40,035 bases of DNA from a virus. A program made the position numbers and the translations under genes. Positions 4,681-34,920 of the stretch are shown here, one piece after another; position 1 is the stretch's first letter, and each line of letters begins with the position of its first letter. The notes below the pieces were generated by a model. The model had not been told where the DNA came from. It saw nothing but the letters and a program-made list of their open reading frames with translations, and made no database searches. The stretch lies in the UHGV virus genome UHGV-0090445; one strand, given 5' to 3'.

Positions 4681-5403
4681 TCAATGAATCCATTCCTCGC
4701 CGCGAAGTTTTGCCAGCATTGGCTGAGCGTTCTTTACGACAAAATTGTTGGTATCAAGATTCTTCATTTCACGAAGAAGTGATTTCTTGGTTTCTTCTGA
4801 CATGTAGCGAGTCTCATATGCAATATCGTAAATCCTTCCTGAAAGCTCAGAACCAATTTGCTTCATTCCTGGGTAGATGTGTTTGCACATTTGTTGACTC
4901 TTCTCCATCCACAATTGTAAGTAGCAGAGATTAACCAGTTCTTCGTCAGTAAACTGTTTTGCAATCGGTGAGCATTCTGCCTGCCGATCCAAAATATCCA
5001 GCACCCAGCGGCGGAACTCTTTGGCCTTGGGCGTAGAAGCAAACATCGCCACCAAGTGAGCGCCTCGGAGCGAGTAAACTCTGACCGATTTGTTACGTAA
5101 GCTATTGTTTATTCCGTTGACCTTCATATTGAGGGTCAATGACATTGAGTCGGAAAATTCGTCAGCATTACGGGCATAAATTTGGCTGATGGCATCAGTT
5201 TTTTTATAGCCGAGAGCCTTAGCTAGTTCGGCGGAGGTGAACCAGATAGACCCGCCCTCTGTTACAGGGTTAAAAGTGAATCCTTGGAAGTTATAATCTG
5301 ATTTTGCTACAATATTCATGTTAGTTTCCTTGGGTACGGTTACTGACATAGAGGCCCGGTTTGTGTTCGCGCACTTCCGGGCTTCACTATTTTTACTGGG
5401 CAT
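4681..5403 (-). CDS. ant: Antirepressor with Bro-N domain
   Basis: Bro-N-like region FTFNPVTEGGSIWFTSAELAKALGYKK...VRVYSLRGAHLVAMFASTPKAKEFRRWVLDIL; start overlaps the Arc stop (coupling); position matches P22 immI arc-ant. Confidence 0.8.
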   Translation of the reverse strand: MPSKNSEARKCANTNRASMSVTVPKETNMNIVAKSDYNFQGFTFNPVTEGGSIWFTSAELAKALGYKKTDAISQIYARNADEFSDSMSLTLNMKVNGINNSLRNKSVRVYSLRGAHLVAMFASTPKAKEFRRWVLDILDRQAECSPIAKQFTDEELVNLCYLQLWMEKSQQMCKHIYPGMKQIGSELSGRIYDIAYETRYMSEETKKSLLREMKNLDTNNFVVKNAQPMLAKLRGEEWIH

Positions 5404-5584
5404 TAGCTCTTTCCTCTCTCAGGCTTTTAGCCAGTCGCTGCACAATCGCAGAGTTGATAGAAATTCCATCCATTTCAGCTACGCGTCTGATCTCCTCCTT
5501 CATTCGCGCTGGCAAACGAAGCTGGAAACTCTGACTTTTACGACCACTGTAAAGAACATCGCTCATCATCAATATCTCCGTCAT
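5393..5584 (-). CDS. arc: Arc-like ribbon-helix-helix repressor
   Basis: 63 aa; FQLRLPARMKEEIRRVAEMDGISINSAIVQRL resembles P22 Arc (FNLRWPREVLDLVRKVAEENGRSVNSEIYQRV). Confidence 0.8.
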   Translation of the reverse strand: MTEILMMSDVLYSGRKSQSFQLRLPARMKEEIRRVAEMDGISINSAIVQRLAKSLREERANAQ

Positions 5585-5585
5585 A

Positions 5586-5640
5586 ATGACATCACCGTGA
5601 TGTCATGACACCATTATGATGCCATTGCTCATAATGTCAA
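5586..5640. promoter_or_regulatory. immI control region: perfect 10-1-10 palindromic operator plus divergent Pant-like and Pmnt-like promoters
   Basis: ATGACATCAC-C-GTGATGTCAT at 5586..5606 immediately upstream of arc; minus-strand promoter -35 TTGACA (complement of 5635..5640), 17-nt spacer, -10 ATAATG (complement of 5612..5617); plus-strand -10 CATAAT near 5630..5635. Confidence 0.5.
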
Positions 5641-5689
5641 TATGATGCTACTGTGTTTTTTATTGCTCATATGCCTTGCGAATAAGAAA

Positions 5690-5941
5690 ATGTCAGAAAA
5701 AGACGAATCAAATTTCATAGAAAGATTTACGGTTAGAATGCCTGACGGCATGCGTAGTGCTATTGCGGAAAGGGCTAAACGAAACGGTCGATCTATGAAC
5801 TCAGAGATAGTTCAAATTCTTGAGGATGCGTTATCATCTGACGTCTCATCAGTAGACAAATCATTAGATCTTAAACAAATAAAATCTTTACTTGATAAAA
5901 TTTCCAACGAGTTACTGGATAGAATCCCAAAAGACACATAA
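5690..5941 (+). CDS. mnt: Mnt/Arc-family ribbon-helix-helix repressor, divergent from arc-ant
   Basis: Internal start at ATG 5690 of ORF 5642..5941; FTVRMPDGMRSAIAERAKRNGRSMNSEIVQILEDAL is an RHH motif; placement and orientation match P22 mnt. Confidence 0.7.
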   Translation: MSEKDESNFIERFTVRMPDGMRSAIAERAKRNGRSMNSEIVQILEDALSSDVSSVDKSLDLKQIKSLLDKISNELLDRIPKDT

Positions 5942-5991
5942 CAAAACATTATCATCCGGTGTTCTGCTCAAAACTAAGGAGTGGCTACTCA

Positions 5992-6630
5992 ATGAAAAAA
6001 ATAGATATATATAGCGATACATCAGCCTATGTCATAGGCTCATTGGGTTTTTTAATTTTTTTTGTTTGGCAGTACCAGTCACTATCTCCAGGATGGCGAT
6101 TTTTTGGGATGTCTTTGATATCACTTGGTGCAGGAATAGCAACGCAGGTGTTGATGTATCTCTTTAATGGATGGCTCTCAAAAAGAGTTGAGAAAAAAAG
6201 AGCTACTTCAATATGTAGAAGCCTAGCTATTCCAGAAGACTCTACAGATCAGGATGATATTGCAAAATGTTGGCGGTATATGATTGCAAGATACTCAAAT
6301 GAGTTACTGGCAAACAGACTGTCCGACTTAATCGGGGTCGTAGTTACCTCTGTTGGAACAATCATCAGTATAGGGATATCAATTTGGTATGTCGGGATGA
6401 TTGTCTATTTTGTTTGGAATAGAGACTTCAATGAACCTTCCCTTCTTTTTATACCTTTATTTTTCAGGGTATTAGCATTCATATGTGAGTTATTGCTCTC
6501 TTTTTTCTGCAATGTTTTGTTCAACAGATACCCAGGTGAAGCAAGAAAGTTTAATAAAAACTATGATGAGTTAAGGAGAACAGATCCTTTTCTATCAAGT
6601 AAAGAGTTCCGCGATTCCATTCGCAATTAA
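5992..6630 (+). CDS. AT-rich predicted 4-TM inner-membrane protein at the SieA position (candidate superinfection exclusion protein)
   Basis: Start ATG 5992 with SD AAGGAG (5977..5982); four hydrophobic segments; AT-rich by eye; sits between mnt and the gp16 homolog as sieA does in P22. Homology to SieA not verifiable here. Confidence 0.65.
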   Translation: MKKIDIYSDTSAYVIGSLGFLIFFVWQYQSLSPGWRFFGMSLISLGAGIATQVLMYLFNGWLSKRVEKKRATSICRSLAIPEDSTDQDDIAKCWRYMIARYSNELLANRLSDLIGVVVTSVGTIISIGISIWYVGMIVYFVWNRDFNEPSLLFIPLFFRVLAFICELLLSFFCNVLFNRYPGEARKFNKNYDELRRTDPFLSSKEFRDSIRN

Positions 6631-6651
6631 CAACATCCATGACATCAACCC

Positions 6652-8517
6652 TTAGCGATCAGTTGCATCATTGGCAAGTATTGGTCTGATGGCATTTGCG
6701 GCGTTATTCAGCGCTCTTTCATAAGCTGGCGTTCCAGCTTTAGTGTTTGCCAGACGTAAGAGCGCATTCCTAGCCATAGGGCTTTCATAAACCCTCGACA
6801 TAAGGCCAATCCCTGTTTCCCCAGCCAATAGCGCGCCTCCGGTTTTTAGGTTACCAATAACCCTTACCAAAGGCGCGAGTGTCATGCCAGTCTTCGTCAC
6901 AACATTAGCCTCAGATGCTCTTTTGGTAGCATCGAGAATAGATAACATCCCCTCTATCTCTTTTCCGTTCTTCCCACCAAATACAGTTTTAAACACCTGA
7001 CCATTTGCTTGTTTTTGCAGCTTGCCAAGCTCGGTCATCATTTTCTGAGGGCTGTCACCTACCTTGTCAGCTATTTTGCTGATATATGCCGCCCTTAGCA
7101 TGTCTTTACCTTTTTGATCGAGTTTCCCGTACAATCGAGCTATATCTGACCCATATTGTCCATACACAATGGTATTTACAGCCTCGGGAGTTAAATCTCC
7201 TTTGTTTAGAACGTTTTTAAGGCGCGTTTGAGTTGCATGTGTTGCCATTTTTGCATAATCAGCTTTTCCCGCCCTCCATGCTGAAGCATCTTTTGGGCTA
7301 AGTCCTTTCGCTATAGATTTACTAAGGCTATTGGTTAGCGAGTTGTAGACCCTGTCGACCATTGTTTGCGACATTGATGGCAGAACTGTACGATCGCCTT
7401 TTACGTCAATGCGGAACTGAGTTCTCAGCTTATCAAGTAACTCAAAGGCATCATCTCCATTTGTTATCTCCTGAATGGCATTCTTATAATCATTAAGCGC
7501 AGAAATGGTCTGGGTGTCAGAAACACCTTTAAGTTTCCCAAGTTCGTTTACTGCTCCGTCGATAGCTCTTATGGCGCCACTTGTATCAACTGGCTTTCCA
7601 ACCATTCTTCCTGACAGGTTGTTTAGTTTTGACTTGGCTAACGATTTTTCCCTTGCAACGCCTGACTTTAGACTATCAACGACTACAGATGGATCGTAGT
7701 CGCCGTATTTTTCGGTGAAGCGATTAACAAGCTTGGTTCTAGCATCCTGCTGTGCGGCTCTCATTGGTCCAGTCCCAGCTATGACTCCTTCTGAGTAACC
7801 CTGCAGTTGATTGCCAAGTTTTGTTTTTGGAGGAACTACATCCGATGTCATAACTGGTACATCTGCCGCAGCGGCACGCTTGAGCAATTGCTGATCTGCT
7901 GGTGATATTTCGCCACGAACAGCAGTAATTCCACGCCCTATTCCCTTTGCTGCTGCGGAAAGAACCCCCTGAGCGGCAAGGTTAACTCCGGCATTTTTAG
8001 CTGCATTTTGTGCGAAATCGCCTTTCTGATTTGCGGCTTCTGCCAGTGATCCAATAGCCATGCTTCCTGCCGTTCCAACTCCTGGAACTAAATACCCGCC
8101 AATTGTTTCTCCAGCTTGAGCGTAGGGGTCTGTCGGTCGATCGACTGGACGATAGACATCATCCAATACTTTTGGCCCACCAAGCCCCTGGCTGATTGCA
8201 TTAATCAGACTTGCGCCACCCTGCAATACGTCAAATGGTATGTTTACCAGACCACGACCAGCCTGCTCTGCAATTTGCCCTGCACTTTGACCACCAGTGA
8301 GCCAATCGCCAGCTTGTTGCATCAATGATGGTTCTTCTTTCTGCTGCTGAGTCGGAGGGTATGCTGCATAAAACTGATCTCTTGCTTCAGCCCATTTGTC
8401 ACCAGCCTTAGGAGCAACAACCTCATCAAAATATTGCGCTTGAGCCTGTGCTTTCTGTTCTTCAGTTAACGCCTGATACTGTGGAGAGGCGATAACATCT
8501 TTCCATGCTTTAGCCAT
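6652..8517 (-). CDS. Ejection (DNA-transfer) protein, P22 gp16-like
   Basis: 621 aa (P22 gp16 about 609 aa); gene order gp7-gp20-gp16 ahead of immI/tailspike; Ala/Gly-rich. Confidence 0.8.
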   Translation of the reverse strand: MAKAWKDVIASPQYQALTEEQKAQAQAQYFDEVVAPKAGDKWAEARDQFYAAYPPTQQQKEEPSLMQQAGDWLTGGQSAGQIAEQAGRGLVNIPFDVLQGGASLINAISQGLGGPKVLDDVYRPVDRPTDPYAQAGETIGGYLVPGVGTAGSMAIGSLAEAANQKGDFAQNAAKNAGVNLAAQGVLSAAAKGIGRGITAVRGEISPADQQLLKRAAAADVPVMTSDVVPPKTKLGNQLQGYSEGVIAGTGPMRAAQQDARTKLVNRFTEKYGDYDPSVVVDSLKSGVAREKSLAKSKLNNLSGRMVGKPVDTSGAIRAIDGAVNELGKLKGVSDTQTISALNDYKNAIQEITNGDDAFELLDKLRTQFRIDVKGDRTVLPSMSQTMVDRVYNSLTNSLSKSIAKGLSPKDASAWRAGKADYAKMATHATQTRLKNVLNKGDLTPEAVNTIVYGQYGSDIARLYGKLDQKGKDMLRAAYISKIADKVGDSPQKMMTELGKLQKQANGQVFKTVFGGKNGKEIEGMLSILDATKRASEANVVTKTGMTLAPLVRVIGNLKTGGALLAGETGIGLMSRVYESPMARNALLRLANTKAGTPAYERALNNAANAIRPILANDATDR

Positions 8518-18480: not shown

Positions 18481-19896
18481 TCAACCTACACCACAAGGAA
18501 TTGAGTAACTGGAATAGTCGGGTTGCGCAGCCGACTCCGGGCAATGCATACACATCATCAGCGCATCAGCCAGGTTAGGAGATGGAATACCGAGCTTCTG
18601 CTTCATTTCGACCTTAGTCATAAGCTCCAGCTTCCCGTTGTTATTGAATTTGCGCTGAATCTGCGTCAGTTCTGCAAACAGCTTCTCCAGCATCTTCTCG
18701 CCTATCGCTTCTTTGTCGAAGCTCAGCATGTCGTCGGGGTCTGCATACTCACCGTGGACAACCGCCCGATATGTCAGATACAGCCTGTCAGCCAGCGCGT
18801 AATAGAATTGCGCTCGCTTATTGCGGAACACATCACCAATAGTGCGAACGTTGTCACCCTGTACGACTTCATCAGCCCATGCTCCGGCCTGATACGGCGC
18901 ATCTTCATCGAATGGCGATTCACTTCCCTTGAACATCGTGGCGGTGATTTTCTTGCCGGAGAACGCTTCCGTTGTCTGTCTGCGTAGGCCCGCACCGACG
19001 CCATCACCGTCCCACAGGTAATGGTCAGCGCCGTCTTCAATCGCCAGCGAAGTAGCCCAGTCAGCACCCTCGTTGATGTCCATCAGCAGACCTTCGGCAA
19101 TACGCTTAACTACCGAACCGTGACGCGATGCGTAACCTTTAGCATCTGGACCTGTATCTGACGGGTCATGCGCAGAGACAACGGCGCCTTTCGCCTTCCA
19201 TCCGAGTTTCTTGTGCGCATCGGTTGCGGCTTCAAGCCATTCACGTTTGATGATTGCCATATCACTTGCGCTTACCGGCTCACCAAGCCAGATGTGACGA
19301 TACAGTGTCGGATTTCTGCGTTTACACTCTTCCATCTCCAGACGGAGAACTTCAGGAAAGTGCGGGTTGTCGGTGTAGTTCACCGTCAGCAGACAAATAT
19401 CATCGGGAGGATTTACGACGAATCGCTGATAGGTATCGTCGAGGATGTTCTTAGGGTTAAAGCTCACCCATATTTCGGAAAACGGCTTGCGGATGGTTGG
19501 TATCAGGATATCCCATGATTCCTTCGTTACCGCTTCCGCTTCCTCCACCCAGCAGATATCAATACCTTCTAGCGATTTAATCTTCGTCGGGTTGTTTTTG
19601 ATGCCGTAGAACATGAACTCAGCATTCGTTCCGAGATGACGAATCATGGAACGCTGAATTTCAAACTCAGCCGAATACCCTTCACGCTCGATGGTATCTT
19701 CAAGCAACCGGATTACCGAATCGCTGATACTGTTTTGCAGTTCACGAGCGCAGAGAATACGCACAGGCTGCCGACGTGCCGCCTCAACAAGCAGCCTCGC
19801 AATTGCCCATGATTTACCGCTACCTCGACCGCCTTTGGCGACTTTGTAGCGATGCGCCTCAATGAACGGTTCAAAGATAGGATTAATCGAGGTCAT
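18481..19896 (-). CDS. Terminase large subunit
   Basis: 471 aa; Walker A KGGRGSGKS near N-terminus; followed by portal. Confidence 0.9.
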   Translation of the reverse strand: MTSINPIFEPFIEAHRYKVAKGGRGSGKSWAIARLLVEAARRQPVRILCARELQNSISDSVIRLLEDTIEREGYSAEFEIQRSMIRHLGTNAEFMFYGIKNNPTKIKSLEGIDICWVEEAEAVTKESWDILIPTIRKPFSEIWVSFNPKNILDDTYQRFVVNPPDDICLLTVNYTDNPHFPEVLRLEMEECKRRNPTLYRHIWLGEPVSASDMAIIKREWLEAATDAHKKLGWKAKGAVVSAHDPSDTGPDAKGYASRHGSVVKRIAEGLLMDINEGADWATSLAIEDGADHYLWDGDGVGAGLRRQTTEAFSGKKITATMFKGSESPFDEDAPYQAGAWADEVVQGDNVRTIGDVFRNKRAQFYYALADRLYLTYRAVVHGEYADPDDMLSFDKEAIGEKMLEKLFAELTQIQRKFNNNGKLELMTKVEMKQKLGIPSPNLADALMMCMHCPESAAQPDYSSYSIPCGVG

Positions 19897-24072: not shown

Positions 24073-24561
24073 CTATGCTACATGTTTAATTTTCTCTACA
24101 CGTTTCCGGTTTTTAAACGCACTATCCAGAACCGGATAAATCATAAACAACGAGGCATTGAGGATTTCGTCAACTTCCCGGCGACAGGTTGCGAGCGATG
24201 GTTTTTGAATGCGCCCGCCGCCCCGGCATAACATCTTGCGAGGTCTTGCGACACGATGATAGTAAGATGCAATGGCGTGCTTGGAAGATCCATGAGCGTA
24301 GTAGCTGAGGAGGATGCCAAAGGCTTTCTTGTCAATGTACATGACGGAATCGACGACCTGAGAAATCAACATTCCATCATCATCATTACACATTGGCCTT
24401 GTCATAACTCTTCCCGGCTCTACGCTCTCCATGAACTTCGCTATTACGCTGCTCATGCGCTTTTCCAGACGACCTGAATAAACCCATGCGCCCCACAGTT
24501 CAAGCCAGCCATTCAGCCACTCGTGCTGTTCTTTGGTGAGGTTTAGTTCTCTTATGCTCAT
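24073..24561 (-). CDS. Late-gene antiterminator Q (non-lambda type)
   Basis: 162 aa ORF immediately upstream of the late leader and S; Cys/His-containing C-terminal half; assigned by position and general Q-family resemblance. Confidence 0.75.
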   Translation of the reverse strand: MSIRELNLTKEQHEWLNGWLELWGAWVYSGRLEKRMSSVIAKFMESVEPGRVMTRPMCNDDDGMLISQVVDSVMYIDKKAFGILLSYYAHGSSKHAIASYYHRVARPRKMLCRGGGRIQKPSLATCRREVDEILNASLFMIYPVLDSAFKNRKRVEKIKHVA

Positions 24562-24746
24562 CGTCTTCCCCTCTTGCCCTGTTTGACCATCAGGACGCCG
24601 TTAACTATTACTTGACGCTCGCCTTTGCTGTCTCGGTTGTACTTGAGCACTGTTCCTCTTGCGCAGGAAAGCATCCTCGCCACTTCGGTCTGATTGCCTC
24701 GTGTCTGGATAAGAAGCTCTGGTATCGTTTGAATTGTGGCGTTCAT
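24558..24746 (-). CDS. ninH: NinH-like protein
   Basis: TIPELLIQTRGNQTEVARMLSCARGTVLKYNRD resembles lambda NinH (GNQTEVARRLKCSRGTVRKY). Confidence 0.8.
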   Translation of the reverse strand: MNATIQTIPELLIQTRGNQTEVARMLSCARGTVLKYNRDSKGERQVIVNGVLMVKQGKRGRR

Positions 24747-25105
24747 GCGTTCTCCAGTTCGGTGATTTTTATTCCAAGCCGTCCGCCTGGTACTTTCACG
24801 CCACGAATTACGCGAATGTCATCGAATTGCTCGTCATCTTCCGCAAATCCGGCGTGGATAAGGGAGTCGAGTAAACCTTTCAGGATGTTATCGAGGTCGC
24901 GGCGGCGGGAGTCTGGAACGTCTGCGATGACTTTGATGCGGAGTCGTGATTTGGTGAAAATGTCTAACTTAAGTTGGCGGATGATTTGCTGAACGTCTTT
25001 TCGGCATTTCTGGCCTTTATCGCTTATGTAATATTGGCTTCCCCGTCTTCGCCAGTAGGTATTCAGCGACGGTGGGTACGGAAGTGTGAATCTGTATTCT
25101 GCCAT
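24743..25105 (-). CDS. rusA: RusA-type Holliday junction resolvase
   Basis: 120 aa; FTLPYPPSLNTYWRR...DSRRRDLDNILKGLLDSLIHAGF...GGRLGIKITELE matches the RusA pattern. Confidence 0.85.
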   Translation of the reverse strand: MAEYRFTLPYPPSLNTYWRRRGSQYYISDKGQKCRKDVQQIIRQLKLDIFTKSRLRIKVIADVPDSRRRDLDNILKGLLDSLIHAGFAEDDEQFDDIRVIRGVKVPGGRLGIKITELENA

Positions 25106-25630
25106 TTATCCTCTCCCATGATTATGGTGATAGCCCAATCGTGATTCCGCCAATTTTCTGGCATTAACGGCTAGAGATATGTCATCGTATAATCCAAGAA
25201 ATATCTTTTTATTATCACTGTTTATATATGCACCCCACTTTTTATTCTTCTTATAGTAGGCAACACCAATTACTCCAGAGCGATTATTAATAGGCTTTTT
25301 TCTGTTCCTTGAGTTCTGTTTATCATCTACAACGCGCAAATTGCATATTCTGTTATCGCTTTTAATTCCATTTATGTGGTCAATTTCCCCATCAGGTTCA
25401 CTTCCATAAAAGGATATCCATGCGATTCTATGAGCTCGACAAACTTTTTTATTTACAGATATACGAACGTATCCTTTTTCATCTATAGAACCAGCAATCT
25501 TACCGGCATATGTTGAATTCCAGCACTCTCTTACACTTTCTCTTCTCTTGTATATAAACAAACCTGTTTCGCTATTATATTCATACAATTCATTGATTTC
25601 TTTTTGTGTTGGATATCTTTTACCGTTCAT
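25106..25630 (-). CDS. HNH homing endonuclease (HNH plus AP2-like region), AT-rich insertion
   Basis: 174 aa; HRIAWISFYGSEPDGEIDHINGIKSDNRICNLRVV (HNH motif), followed by GVIGVAYYKKNKKWGAYI (AP2-like); AT-rich by eye; wedged between ybcO-like and rusA. Confidence 0.8.
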   Translation of the reverse strand: MNGKRYPTQKEINELYEYNSETGLFIYKRRESVRECWNSTYAGKIAGSIDEKGYVRISVNKKVCRAHRIAWISFYGSEPDGEIDHINGIKSDNRICNLRVVDDKQNSRNRKKPINNRSGVIGVAYYKKNKKWGAYINSDNKKIFLGLYDDISLAVNARKLAESRLGYHHNHGRG

Positions 25631-25917
25631 GGCTTAATCTTCCCCTCCTTCAGCAGTATCGCCTGCGTCCTGATCACGCCTTCGAGGTGGTAAAGTCTGG
25701 CGTCTTTGTTGTCGAGAATCATTGTGCGTCGGTCGATTTCATCGTGACACGCGCTACAAGCCCATGCGCCGATCAGGTCGTCAGGCTTCATTCCAGTTCC
25801 GCAAATTCCAGCCATCCGGTAATGTGCCAGAACTGTGGTTTCAGGATTACCATTGCATACTCCGTAAATACGTACCTGGCATTCTCTGCCGCGCGCTTCT
25901 TTGCGTAGGTTAGCCAT
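25627..25917 (-). CDS. YbcO-like (DUF1364) nin-region protein
   Basis: 96 aa with Cys/His cluster (CQVRIYGVC...AHYR...WACSACHDEID); resembles remembered DLP12 YbcO family; neighbours RusA. Confidence 0.65.
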   Translation of the reverse strand: MANLRKEARGRECQVRIYGVCNGNPETTVLAHYRMAGICGTGMKPDDLIGAWACSACHDEIDRRTMILDNKDARLYHLEGVIRTQAILLKEGKIKP

Positions 25918-26639
25918 TAAGCAGCCTCCCCTGTTACTTTCAGCATTCCGTTATCGAGCAGCTTTCTGGTCAGCCACTGTTGACCACGCCCGGTGATTTT
26001 TGTGGTGAACGATATCTGTATTCCGTGATTTGTGTTGACCGCTGTTTCTTTCACTGTGAAATAGCCGCGATCCATATATTCCTGCATTGGCACATTGCGC
26101 CGGGAACCTGAAGCAATAAGGATTTTGTGATCGCGCATCCACGCAAACAGTTTGTTTTGACCAATTCCAACAACCTTTGCAAAGTTTCCAATCAAAATTC
26201 CACTGGCCTCGCCAACGCGATCGGCAAACTCAACTTTAGGTGCGGCAATTGCGAGCTGGTTTTCCAGTTGCATTTTCTGCTCAGCAAGGTCAGCAGCAAG
26301 GCGCAACGCTTCTGGTAGCGTTTTGGGGATATTAACCGCAGCTTCTTCAAGCTCTCGCCAACGGTCAACAAGACGAGCGGTGAACTCTGGCGACAACTGG
26401 GCCACAACGACAATACTGTCTCGCTTTCCTTGTTCGCCTTCGAATACATACACACAAAAACTTTGATTTAAGCCTAACCCATTGATTCTTCCACAATCCT
26501 CAATTTGAGGAAGCCGGATAACACCATTTTTAGCCAGCGTTTCGATGGTACGTTTAACATTGTCATGACGCTTACCAACCAACTCAGCGATTTCAATGCT
26601 TGTCATTTTTATGGCATTGCCATTTATTAACTCATTCAT
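25917..26639 (-). CDS. Rha-family antirepressor with KilAC/ANT C-terminal domain
   Basis: 240 aa; N-terminal SIEIAELVGKRHDNVKRTIETL (Rha-like HTH region); C-terminal GILIGNFAKVVGIGQNKLFAWMRDHKIL (ANT/KilAC-like). Confidence 0.8.
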   Translation of the reverse strand: MNELINGNAIKMTSIEIAELVGKRHDNVKRTIETLAKNGVIRLPQIEDCGRINGLGLNQSFCVYVFEGEQGKRDSIVVVAQLSPEFTARLVDRWRELEEAAVNIPKTLPEALRLAADLAEQKMQLENQLAIAAPKVEFADRVGEASGILIGNFAKVVGIGQNKLFAWMRDHKILIASGSRRNVPMQEYMDRGYFTVKETAVNTNHGIQISFTTKITGRGQQWLTRKLLDNGMLKVTGEAA

Positions 26640-32442: not shown

Positions 32443-32769
32443 ATGGATGCACAAACACGCCGCCGCGAACGTCGCGCAGAGAAACAGGCTCAATGGAAAG
32501 CAGCAAATCCCCTGTTGGTTGGGGTAAGCGCAAAACCAGTTAACCGCCCTATTCTCTCGCTGAATCGCAAACCGAAATCACGAGTAGAAAGCGCACTGAA
32601 TCCGATAGACCTTACGGTGCTGGCTGAATACCACGAACAGATTGAAAGCAACCTGCAACGTATTGAGCGCAAGAATCAGCGCACATGGTACAGCAAGCCA
32701 CGCAGTGAAATGGGTGTGACTTGTGTTGGTCGCCAGAAAATGAAATTAGGCAGCAAACCACTTATTTGA
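32443..32769 (+). CDS. N: Antiterminator N (lambda-type)
   Basis: Internal start ATG 32443 of ORF 32287..32769; MDAQTRRRERRAEKQAQWKAANPLLVGVSAKPVNRPILSLNRKPKSRVESALNPIDLTVLAEYH... matches remembered lambda N arginine-rich motif and body. Confidence 0.9.
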   Translation: MDAQTRRRERRAEKQAQWKAANPLLVGVSAKPVNRPILSLNRKPKSRVESALNPIDLTVLAEYHEQIESNLQRIERKNQRTWYSKPRSEMGVTCVGRQKMKLGSKPLI

Positions 32770-32777
32770 GGTGATAT

Positions 32778-33029
32778 ATGGAGTTTCATGAAAGTGCGAT
32801 TTGTGATTTTCGCGCTAACGCAAATTCAGTAAAACCACAGCCAATTGCAGTTCTTTTTAAAACAATGGGTGCGTGGGCTGTTTTATGCTTCGCCGCTGAC
32901 GACACTGACGCAAGAATGGCAATAGGCCAAGAGATGGAGATGGACCCGACAAACGATGAATTCATAATTTATGGCGCTCCATCTAATTACTTACTTGATA
33001 CCTGCAACATTTACAACAAGGCTGCCTGA
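32778..33029 (+). CDS. Hypothetical early protein (83 aa)
   Basis: ORF from track immediately after N; no family recognised. Confidence 0.45.
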   Translation: MEFHESAICDFRANANSVKPQPIAVLFKTMGAWAVLCFAADDTDARMAIGQEMEMDPTNDEFIIYGAPSNYLLDTCNIYNKAA

Positions 33030-33069
33030 TGGTGGCCTTTATTTTTGGCATAAACAATATGGGGTAAAA

Positions 33070-33396
33070 ATGAAAGTTTTAATGGTTTATGAAAATGTTC
33101 CAGAGTCGACTGAAATCTATATTTTTGATGCCAATGAAGATGAAGTTAACGATTTGAAATTGTCTCACGGCAATTACACAAATGCTAATTGTGATGAAAG
33201 TATCGAAAAAGCACTATCACGTGTTCTTGTCAGAATTAGTGATCCAGAACATTGTGATGATGATTGGCTTTCTTATTGTGGAGCGGTAAAAACTGATGCA
33301 GGAAAATGGAGTAAAAGTAAAGTTGATAACTCAACTCCAATTATTATGAAAGATAGCGATATTGAAATGGTAATAATAACCGGAATGATTATGTAG
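33070..33396 (+). CDS. Acidic AT-rich hypothetical early protein (108 aa)
   Basis: Internal start ATG 33070 with SD GGGG; about 21 Asp/Glu vs 10 Lys/Arg by hand count; strongly AT-rich codons. Confidence 0.5.
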   Translation: MKVLMVYENVPESTEIYIFDANEDEVNDLKLSHGNYTNANCDESIEKALSRVLVRISDPEHCDDDWLSYCGAVKTDAGKWSKSKVDNSTPIIMKDSDIEMVIITGMIM

Positions 33397-33502
33397 GCTG
33401 CGAATAAGCACTGTGTATTCATTCCAACGAGTGAATACACGGAGCAATGTCGCTCGTAACTAAACAGGAGACGACTTGTTCTGATTATTGGAAATCTTCT
33501 TT

Positions 33503-33529
33503 GCCCTCCAATGTGAGGGCGATTTTTTA
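33503..33529 (+). terminator. Intrinsic terminator inside the pL operon
   Basis: GCCCTC-CAATGT-GAGGGC followed by GATTTTTTAT. Confidence 0.4.
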
Positions 33530-33548
33530 TCTGTGAGGATATGAACAG

Positions 33549-33917
33549 ATGTCAAACATCAAAAAATACATCATTGATTACGACTGGAAAGCATCAATAG
33601 AAATTGAAATCGACCATGACGTAATGACAGAGGAAAAACTTCACCAGATTAATAATTTCTGGTCAGACTCTGAATACCGACTCAATAAACACGGCGCTGT
33701 ATTAAATGCTGTATTAATCATGCTGGCGCAACATGCTCTGCTTATAGCAATTTCGAAAGACTTAAATGCATATGGTGTTGTTTGTGAGTTCGACTGGGAT
33801 GATGGAAATGGTCAGGAAGGATGGCCTCCAATGGATGGTAGTGAAGGAATAAGAATTACCGATATCGATACATCAGGAATATTTGATTCAGATGATATGA
33901 CTATCAAAGCCGCCTGA
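33549..33917 (+). CDS. Acidic hypothetical early protein (122 aa)
   Basis: ORF from track; about 23 Asp/Glu vs 9 Lys/Arg by hand count, acidic C-terminal region EFDWDDGNGQEGWPPMDGSEG...FDSDDM. Confidence 0.55.
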   Translation: MSNIKKYIIDYDWKASIEIEIDHDVMTEEKLHQINNFWSDSEYRLNKHGAVLNAVLIMLAQHALLIAISKDLNAYGVVCEFDWDDGNGQEGWPPMDGSEGIRITDIDTSGIFDSDDMTIKAA

Positions 33918-33951
33918 GAGCGTTTTTAAAGAATACAACGAAGGAGGATAT

Positions 33952-34920
33952 ATGAGTGAAGTAACAGATTTAGTTGTTATTGAAAAAGCAAATGCAATGA
34001 CTGTATTTCAGTCTGCCGACCAGATTGAAGAAATCCTTCAAAGGGTTGAACGTGAAGTTATGTCCTTTGTGCCTGATATCACAACGGCAAAGGGCAGAAA
34101 GGAGATCGCTTCTCTGGCGTATAAAGTTGCGCAGACGAAAACATATCTCGATGGTCTTGGCAAAGACCTTGTTGCTGAACTGAAGGAAATTCCAAAGCTA
34201 ATTGATGCCAACCGCAAGACAGTGCGTGATCGCCTTGATGAGCTGAAAGCCAAGGCGCGCCAGCCTCTTACTGATTATGAGGAGGAACAGGCACGGATTA
34301 AAGCCGAAGAAGAAGCTAAGGCAGCAGCTGAAGCTCTCGCAAAGCAAATTGAGTCTGACCATGAAATAGCGATTTTGATGGATCGCGAATTTGACCGCCA
34401 AAGAGAAGAGGCAAGACTCAAAGCGGAGCAGGAAAAGCGAGAGCATGAAGAACGCTTAAAAAGAGAAGCTGAAGAGAAAGCCAGAGCAGAAGCCGAAGCA
34501 AAGGCAAAAGCCGAAATTGAAGCAGCAGCAAGGAGAGAAGCAGAAGCTAAGGCCGCAGCGGAACGTGCAGAGCGTGAACGCATTGAAGCCGAGCAACGAG
34601 CACAGCGCGAAGCAAAAGAGGCAGCAGAACGAGCTGAAAGAGAAAAGCAGGCGGCAATTGAAGCAGAACGCCGAAAAGCACAGGAGGAGGCTGAACGAAT
34701 CCGGCGCGAAGCTGAAGCAAAAGAGCAAGCCAGAATAGCAGAAGAAAAAAGAATCAAGGACGAAGAAGAGCGTAGAGCAAAGGATAAAGCTCACCGGAAA
34801 GAAGTAAATAACAAAATACTTGCTGACCTTATCAAGGTTGGCGCATCAGAAGATGTTGCTAAAAATATCATAACAGCCATCGTAAAAGGCGAAGTATTCG
34901 CAACAAAAATAACCTACTAA
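33952..34920 (+). CDS. DUF1351-like coiled-coil protein with Ala/Glu/Lys/Arg-rich low-complexity centre
   Basis: 322 aa; conserved-looking N- and C-terminal regions flanking about 130 aa of AEAKAKAE/ERAERE repeats; lies in the recombination module upstream of the annealing protein. Family name from memory. Confidence 0.6.
   Translation: MSEVTDLVVIEKANAMTVFQSADQIEEILQRVEREVMSFVPDITTAKGRKEIASLAYKVAQTKTYLDGLGKDLVAELKEIPKLIDANRKTVRDRLDELKAKARQPLTDYEEEQARIKAEEEAKAAAEALAKQIESDHEIAILMDREFDRQREEARLKAEQEKREHEERLKREAEEKARAEAEAKAKAEIEAAARREAEAKAAAERAERERIEAEQRAQREAKEAAERAEREKQAAIEAERRKAQEEAERIRREAEAKEQARIAEEKRIKDEEERRAKDKAHRKEVNNKILADLIKVGASEDVAKNIITAIVKGEVFATKITY

Follow-up and report, generated by a model that had tools for sequence, protein, structure and literature searches.

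I-HmuI of Bacillus phage SPO1 (PDB 1U3E) and its relatives I-HmuII and I-BasI are HNH_3-type homing endonucleases. I-HmuI is encoded inside a group I intron of the DNA polymerase gene, and its C-terminal DNA-binding part is helical/HTH. The enzyme nicks one strand. HNH plus AP2 is a recognised family of homing endonuclease genes (HEGs), as summarised in PMC10448857, which cites Magnani et al. 2004. In that summary, its members in phages, cyanobacteria and protists are small proteins with an N-terminal HNH and a C-terminal AP2 domain; the phage genes are free-standing and sporadic, and are found at boundaries of genetic exchange (PMC10448857). A divergent branch of this family, the 'IPA-HNH' genes of Vibrio phage ICP1, has no match to the canonical Pfam HNH_3 model (PMC10448857). 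In T4, free-standing HEG homing with co-conversion is established (PMC2988022, PMC2790892). The T4 genes segF, segG and mobE lie between conserved genes and are co-inherited with a short flank, and their presumed target is the HEG-less allele of a neighbouring conserved gene (PMC2988022, PMC2790892). The cuts made by T4 free-standing HEGs often lie hundreds to thousands of bp away from the HEG itself (PMC2988022).

Here we describe a free-standing HNH-AP2 gene between ybcO and rusA in UHGV-0090445, a stretch of 40,035 nt that was analysed whole and is called the window below. The predicted protein is of HNH_3 type like I-HmuI, whereas its gene stands between two ORFs and the protein ends in an AP2 domain. 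It shares with the HNH-AP2 family the domain order, the small size, the free-standing and sporadic occurrence and the position at a boundary of genetic exchange. It differs from the ICP1 genes in matching Pfam HNH_3, and from the family members described in phage group and host, which here are temperate P22-like and lambdoid coliphages. With SegF, SegG and MobE it shares the location between conserved genes, the short co-inherited flank and the presumed target. However, T4 Seg enzymes are GIY-YIG proteins and MobE is an HNH protein with another C-terminal domain, and T4 is virulent, whereas the carrier here is a prophage, with a nin operon that stays silent during lysogeny. RefSeq already annotates the gene as 'HNH endonuclease signature motif containing protein'. 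A literature search found no paper on this gene or on HEGs in the lambdoid nin region. The kind of HEG is known; what is new is a precise target prediction of ~40 nt.

The gene, its neighbours and its protein

The whole window is a P22-like lambdoid E. coli prophage. It encodes an integrase, a P22-type tailspike head-binding domain, a Terminase_3 large terminase subunit, a toprim/DnaB-like primase-helicase, a CI-like repressor and an N protein. The recombination and repair functions on the phage are NinB, RusA and a Rad52-like annealase. In the Pfam matches and ORF list, a Roi/Ant-type gene, ninF, ninE and NinB lie upstream of the ybcO-rusA region, and NinH and then antiterminator Q lie downstream of rusA. 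Coordinates of the features under study are given in Table 1. PHROG 131 and RefSeq label ybcO itself 'HNH endonuclease', so that three nuclease-type genes stand in a row (ybcO, the HNH-AP2 gene and rusA).

Table 1. Features at the ybcO-rusA locus of the window
Feature	Position	Strand	Details and evidence
HNH-AP2 endonuclease gene (predicted), free-standing	25106..25630	-	intact ORF, ATG start, 174 aa, 34.7% GC
ybcO (DUF1364, putative nuclease), upstream neighbour, backbone gene	25627..25917	-	Pfam YbcO E 2.8e-44
rusA (Holliday-junction resolvase), downstream neighbour	24743..25105	-	Pfam RusA E 3.8e-15; PHROG 34
ATGA overlap of ybcO stop and HNH start, left cassette boundary	25627..25630	-	sequence; alignment with HK75
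HNH_3 catalytic motif, aa 65-108, AHR...EIDHINGIKSDNRICNLRVVDDKQNSRN, D84 H85 N97 N106	25307..25438	-	Pfam; I-HmuI 1u3e alignment
C-terminal AP2-type DNA-binding domain, aa ~113-165, three strands and a helix	25136..25294	-	
First 40 nt of rusA, inherited with the insert; candidate target and immunity region	25066..25105	-	carrier versus empty comparison
Shine-Dalgarno-like GGAGAGGA in the last HNH codons (CAT GGG AGA GGA TAA), 4-5 nt before the rusA ATG	25109..25116	-	

The sequence-only reading had described an AT-rich HNH/AP2-type endonuclease gene wedged between two genes that are otherwise adjacent, with start and stop codons touching its neighbours, and every part of this description held. 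The placement between ybcO and rusA is exact. The upstream junction reads ...AAG CCA TGA / ATG AAC GG, and the HNH gene shares ATGA with the ybcO stop; downstream, its stop TAA (25106-25108) directly abuts the rusA ATG (25103-25105). The GC content of the ORF is 0.347, compared with 0.52 for ybcO, 0.49 for rusA and 0.471 for the whole window, and it stays at 0.34-0.36 along the ORF against 0.49-0.52 on either side. Among all 525-nt stretches of the window it is the lowest (z = -3.0), with only 8 of 1581 equally low. By composition the gene is foreign to the backbone. In a promoter/terminator scan, no minus-strand promoter was placed within the gene or close to it, and fewer sites were counted than expected from shuffled sequence; nothing points to a promoter of its own.

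Three other regions of the window are comparably AT-rich (GC < 0.40) and are probably accessory or exchanged modules. One, at 1076-2350, lies at the boundary of the tailspike C-terminal part and the integrase. Another, at 5400-6800, surrounds an ORF without a Pfam match (5959-6630) and adjoins a Bro-N/P22AR gene. The last, at 32700-34100, lies in the early-left region after N and includes an ORF without a Pfam match (32971-33396).

The protein matched Pfam HNH_3 (PF13392) over profile positions 2-46 of 46 with 60.7 bits (cut-off 24.8; E 1e-16) and PHROG 99 'HNH endonuclease' (E 7e-63); NCBIfam had no model for it. In single-sequence searches the AP2 match was sub-threshold and the I-HmuI match was weak. 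A profile built from a 52-sequence alignment of homologues matched I-HmuI at profile positions 38-108 (E 2e-6) and plant AP2 domains at positions ~113-162 (WRI1, E 1.5e-8; TEM1, 4.3e-5). Residues D84, H85, N97 and N106 align with the I-HmuI catalytic residues D74, H75, N87 and N96, and D84, H85, N87, D92, N93, N97, N106 and N109 are invariant across the 52 homologues. The AlphaFold model is confident throughout (pLDDT 94.8). The protein has a beta-beta-alpha-metal fold with an N-terminal sheet of DNA-binding type, and the AP2 domain follows the HNH domain as in the HNH-AP2 family. Because of the profile matches and the conserved catalytic residues, the protein is predicted to be an HNH nuclease like I-HmuI that ends in an AP2 DNA-binding domain.

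Distribution, junctions and diversity

Positions 24500-26300 of the window were compared by megablast with 50,697 phage records. Matches were found in 277 records, of which none covered at least 80% of the query and none carries the HNH gene. The phage matches listed contain both flank pieces and lack the middle 525 bases (HK75: 1276 of 1801 nt), and the flanks are 95-97% identical in hundreds of phages. In HK75, ybcO and rusA overlap by 4 nt. A 'distant' blastn search with the insert alone returned just one 50-nt match at chance level, so the gene is in none of the 50,697 sequenced phage records.

Carriers were found among bacterial genomes and virus contigs. The gene is present in 33 of 5,426 complete E. 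coli genomes. About 925 of these genomes cover the empty-junction probe; as pieces separated by less than 650 nt are joined, carriers may be counted among them (empty, ~890-925). The carrier frequency is ~3.5% (33 versus ~925 genomes with the ybcO-rusA junction). IMG/VR holds 19 carrier contigs, 18 with a full copy and one ending inside the gene, and at least 120 contigs with the empty junction. All 19 IMG/VR and all 33 E. coli copies lie directly upstream of rusA. Comparison with relatives that lack the insert therefore identifies a single site, the ybcO/rusA junction, at which the gene is present or absent among otherwise near-identical genomes, as in HEGs. Most relatives are without it, contrary to what would count against an insertion, namely a gene common to all relatives with backbone-like composition. 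Nuclease motifs, whose absence from a profile search would also have counted against the sequence-only reading, are present.

Copies within the E. coli cluster are at least 98% identical, and the nearest proteins outside it are at most 48% identical. Distant homologues (35-52% identity, 62 loci) lie in other contexts, none of them beside rusA or ybcO. A protein scan of GTDB with one genome per species found no close relative; the sole match was a 41%-identical gene in a Kiritimatiellae MAG. The foreign composition is accompanied by an absence of close relatives in the host backbone, again as in HEGs.

Intact copies number 52 of 53, and the exception is cut by IS1. In that copy (L223:3501-4691, E. 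coli 1008S19), IS1A has taken the place of the 5'-terminal 87 nt of the HNH gene and of all sequence as far as cII. E. coli KCJ3K291 (NZ_CP054407.1, matches H57/H129) has two places with the ybcO-rusA region, one of them with the HNH gene, and possibly represents a naturally occurring cell with both a carrier and a non-carrier prophage. One carrier prophage (L018, IMGVR_UViG_2563366924_000005) has a second HNH_3/AP2-like ORF of different sequence (MKMVITQQVLKSLMHYDPVSGVFTW...VDHLDRNPLNNGIKNLR...) downstream of the Q/tRNA region and before the holin, another module junction; this suggests that lambdoid prophages collect several such genes. On another contig (IMGVR_UViG_3300045988_022724, L023:2977-3528, the same contig as L101), a 183-aa paralogue with 44% identity to the window protein directly follows the Rz lysis gene, and the same contig also holds a rusA-linked copy.

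Alignment with HK75 gives the anatomy of the junction. The empty allele reads ...AAGCC ATGAACGAATATCAGTTTGTG CTTCC... and its RusA begins MNEYQFV; the carrier allele reads ...AAGCC ATGAACGG[HNH]...GGGAGAGGATAA ATGGCAGAATACAGATTCACA CTTCC... and its RusA begins MAEYRFT. The first 21 nt of rusA are replaced in carriers, so that on balance 546 nt stand in place of 21 nt. The gene had been described as an insertion on the sequence-only reading; the exact placement at ybcO/rusA bears this out, but the event is not a pure insertion, since the start of rusA is replaced and linked SNPs extend to +40.

Carriers (19-20 loci) and empty loci (105-108) were compared position by position from -700 to +800. 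There are 11 fixed differences at rusA +4 to +21 and 3 near-fixed differences at +27, +33 and +40, and no other carrier/non-carrier difference was found in this range, including in ybcO and beyond rusA +40. A ybcO polymorphism ~90 nt upstream (MIL versus HNL) is unlinked to the insert. In IMG/VR, all 19 contigs with the MAEYRFT tract carry the HNH gene, and among the E. coli genomes a full tract match occurs in exactly the 33 with the gene. No 'empty but immune' allele (the MAEYRFT tract without the gene) was found in IMG/VR or the E. coli genomes. Two partial tract matches were rejected as such alleles and represent a different natural rusA allele after an ant gene. Part of this linkage is trivial, since a block with 11 of 18 positions mismatched allows no crossover within it.

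The different rusA allele occurs in E. coli FDAARGOS_944 and FDAARGOS_943 (L224:1208-1570 and L225:1208-1570), in which rusA directly follows the ant gene without ybcO. At its 5' end, ATGAATGAGTACAGATTCACG (MNEYRFTLPYPPSL), this allele stands in between the allele of empty sites and the tract linked to the HEG. This likeness makes it probable that the linked tract arose from a minor class of rusA alleles and was not newly recoded. The FDAARGOS allele is possibly a relative of the one in which the HEG first landed, and the tract may be a hitch-hiking remnant of that first host allele, not an evolved immunity sequence.

The Shine-Dalgarno-like GGAGAGGA is identical in 20 of 20 carrier loci examined; supplied by the insert, it would serve rusA. 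The HNH gene opens with ATGAACG, the same 7 nt with which rusA starts in the empty allele. This is suggestive of start-codon capture, on which we place no reliance because ATGA is forced by the stop overlap and the 3 nt left free would agree by chance at ~1/64.

Nucleotide diversity (pi) among 20 carriers is 0.0076 in the HNH gene, 0 in rusA nt 1-40, 0.045 in ybcO and 0.030 in rusA nt 41-363. Among non-carriers it is 0.024 in rusA nt 1-40, 0.044 in ybcO and 0.027 in rusA nt 41-363. Flank diversity in carriers equals that in non-carriers for ybcO and rusA nt 41-363, and rusA beyond nt 40 is ordinary backbone; diversity in the insert is 4-6 times below that of its flanks (0.008 versus 0.03-0.045). 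Among carriers, pS is 0.030 for the HNH gene, 0.115 for ybcO and 0.096 for full-length rusA, and pN/pS is 0.13, 0.18 and 0.06, respectively; the HNH value indicates that the protein is being maintained by purifying selection. DNA 1-3 kb away differs between carriers, with 18 upstream types at 18 loci and 13 downstream types at 19 loci. Given the low insert diversity, the selection and the diverse flanks and distal DNA, the gene is a young conserved cassette with sharp edges in many old, diverse backbones.

Proposed homing and its alternatives

The ORF is probably a free-standing HEG-type selfish nuclease gene, HNH_3/I-HmuI-like with a C-terminal AP2 domain. The HNH-AP2 architecture, the presence or absence at one site and the foreign GC content support the type to which it had been assigned, a free-standing homing endonuclease, as do the sharp-edged, low-diversity cassette in many backbones, the intact ORFs and the repair functions encoded by the phage. 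The low carrier frequency of ~3.5% and the absence from every isolated phage of the phage collection speak against it. From the population patterns we infer cleavage of the empty allele, as a nick or a double-strand break, the position of the cut and gene conversion. That the gene is actively homing in temperate lambdoid coliphages, with the ybcO/rusA junction and the first ~40 nt of rusA as recognition site, is proposed tentatively. The specific assignment of the target to this junction or to the rusA 5' end is more tentative still.

The proposed scheme would follow the 'intronless homing' of T4 Seg and Mob enzymes by analogy (PMC2988022, PMC2790892). In lytic growth or on induction, the gene would share the transcript of the pR/nin operon, and the ATGA overlap would couple its translation to that of ybcO. 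The enzyme would use its N-terminal sheet and AP2 domain to bind the uninterrupted ybcO-rusA allele of a related co-resident phage or prophage and nick or cut it at or beside the junction, likeliest within rusA nt 1-40 or across the ybcO/rusA boundary. The break would be repaired by recombination with the HEG-bearing genome as template, through the phage Rad52-like annealase, NinB/Orf and RusA, or host RecA. Along with the 525-bp gene, repair would copy the ~40 nt of rusA beside it. Two features would protect the carrier allele, the splitting of the site by the insert and the changes at 14 positions. The host phage would lose nothing because the insert brings a rusA ribosome-binding site and a near-equivalent N-terminus (MAEYRFT versus MNEYQFV).

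The linked 40-nt tract is a candidate nuclease target, in which carrier and empty alleles differ at those 14 positions; the tract also resembles a natural rusA allele. Since T4 HEGs can cut far away, the target need not lie in this tract. At rusA +28 to +40 (window 25066-25078), the empty allele in L001 is ACCCGCCGTCGG, with a CCGCC core resembling the plant GCC box, and carriers have ACCCACCGTCGC, changed at +33 and +40. It is purely speculative that the AP2 domain may read its target here.

The cassette could also be a passive accessory gene ('moron'), which we consider unlikely. Such a gene would have been acquired once by illegitimate recombination, would not be self-mobile, and would be kept as useful to the phage, for example in attack on competing phages, satellites or host DNA; its only route from one backbone to another would have been ordinary homologous recombination in the ybcO/rusA flanks. 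Lambdoid phages recombine very often in conserved nin genes, so a passive insert could change backbones and its flanks could randomise without a nuclease. The flanks, with 95-97% identity in hundreds of phages, offer highly conserved substrates for recombination, the pN/pS of 0.13 fits a function useful to the phage, the low frequency of ~3.5% shows no obvious drive, and the window has other AT-rich accessory islands. This explanation does not, however, readily account for all 52 copies at one site, for a nucleotide-exact placement that preserves the expression signals of both neighbours, or for a domain architecture that is that of known HEGs (PMC10448857). In addition, the flanks are randomised up to the gene's first base and to rusA +41 and the insert is 4-6 times younger, which implies many very close crossovers, as break-stimulated repair predicts. 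The two readings also overlap, as HEGs can serve phage competition by marker exclusion (PMC2988022).

Loss of activity was considered as well. A HEG that was once active, has stopped cutting and simply persists would agree with HEG life-cycle theory, which predicts degeneration after invasion, with the copy truncated by IS1 and with the weak single-sequence AP2 match. But the ORF is intact in 52 of 53 copies, every catalytic and structural invariant is kept, pN/pS is similar to that of neighbouring essential-type genes, and the structural model is confident throughout. An inactive relic is very improbable, and was rejected on the intact copies and the purifying selection.

HNH proteins of lambdoid (HK97-like) phages are known terminase cofactors, HK97 gp74 being an example, but a packaging-associated role of this kind is hardly credible here and was rejected on location, family and dispensability: the gene does not adjoin terminase or portal genes but is part of the nin region, and the ~5 kb that separate it from the terminase (18481-19896, a P22/Sf6-type Terminase_3) include ninH, Q and lysis genes; it is of HNH_3/I-HmuI type with AP2 and not a short HNH adjoining terminase, and is absent from ~96% of otherwise near-identical phages, which package normally.

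Meaning for lambdoid phages

Homing endonucleases are well studied in T4-like virulent phages and hardly in temperate lambdoid phages. If the homing reading is true, 'intronless homing' occurs outside virulent T4-like phages; in all other respects the HNH-AP2 gene would be an ordinary selfish gene. Lambdoid mosaicism is usually ascribed to plain homologous recombination, and if the reading holds, a HEG contributes to a sharp mosaic boundary within the nin region. The HEG could then, once its prophage is induced, attack HEG-less prophages in the same cell. The locus is a compact system: the gene measures 525 bp, the target is predicted to span ~40 nt, and nature supplies one presumably resistant allele and hundreds of presumably susceptible ones. 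E. coli with HK97, HK620 or P22-like phages offers the best genetic background for tests. The bacterial and phage AP2 domain is the presumed ancestor of plant AP2/ERF factors, and this system would give it a defined DNA target.
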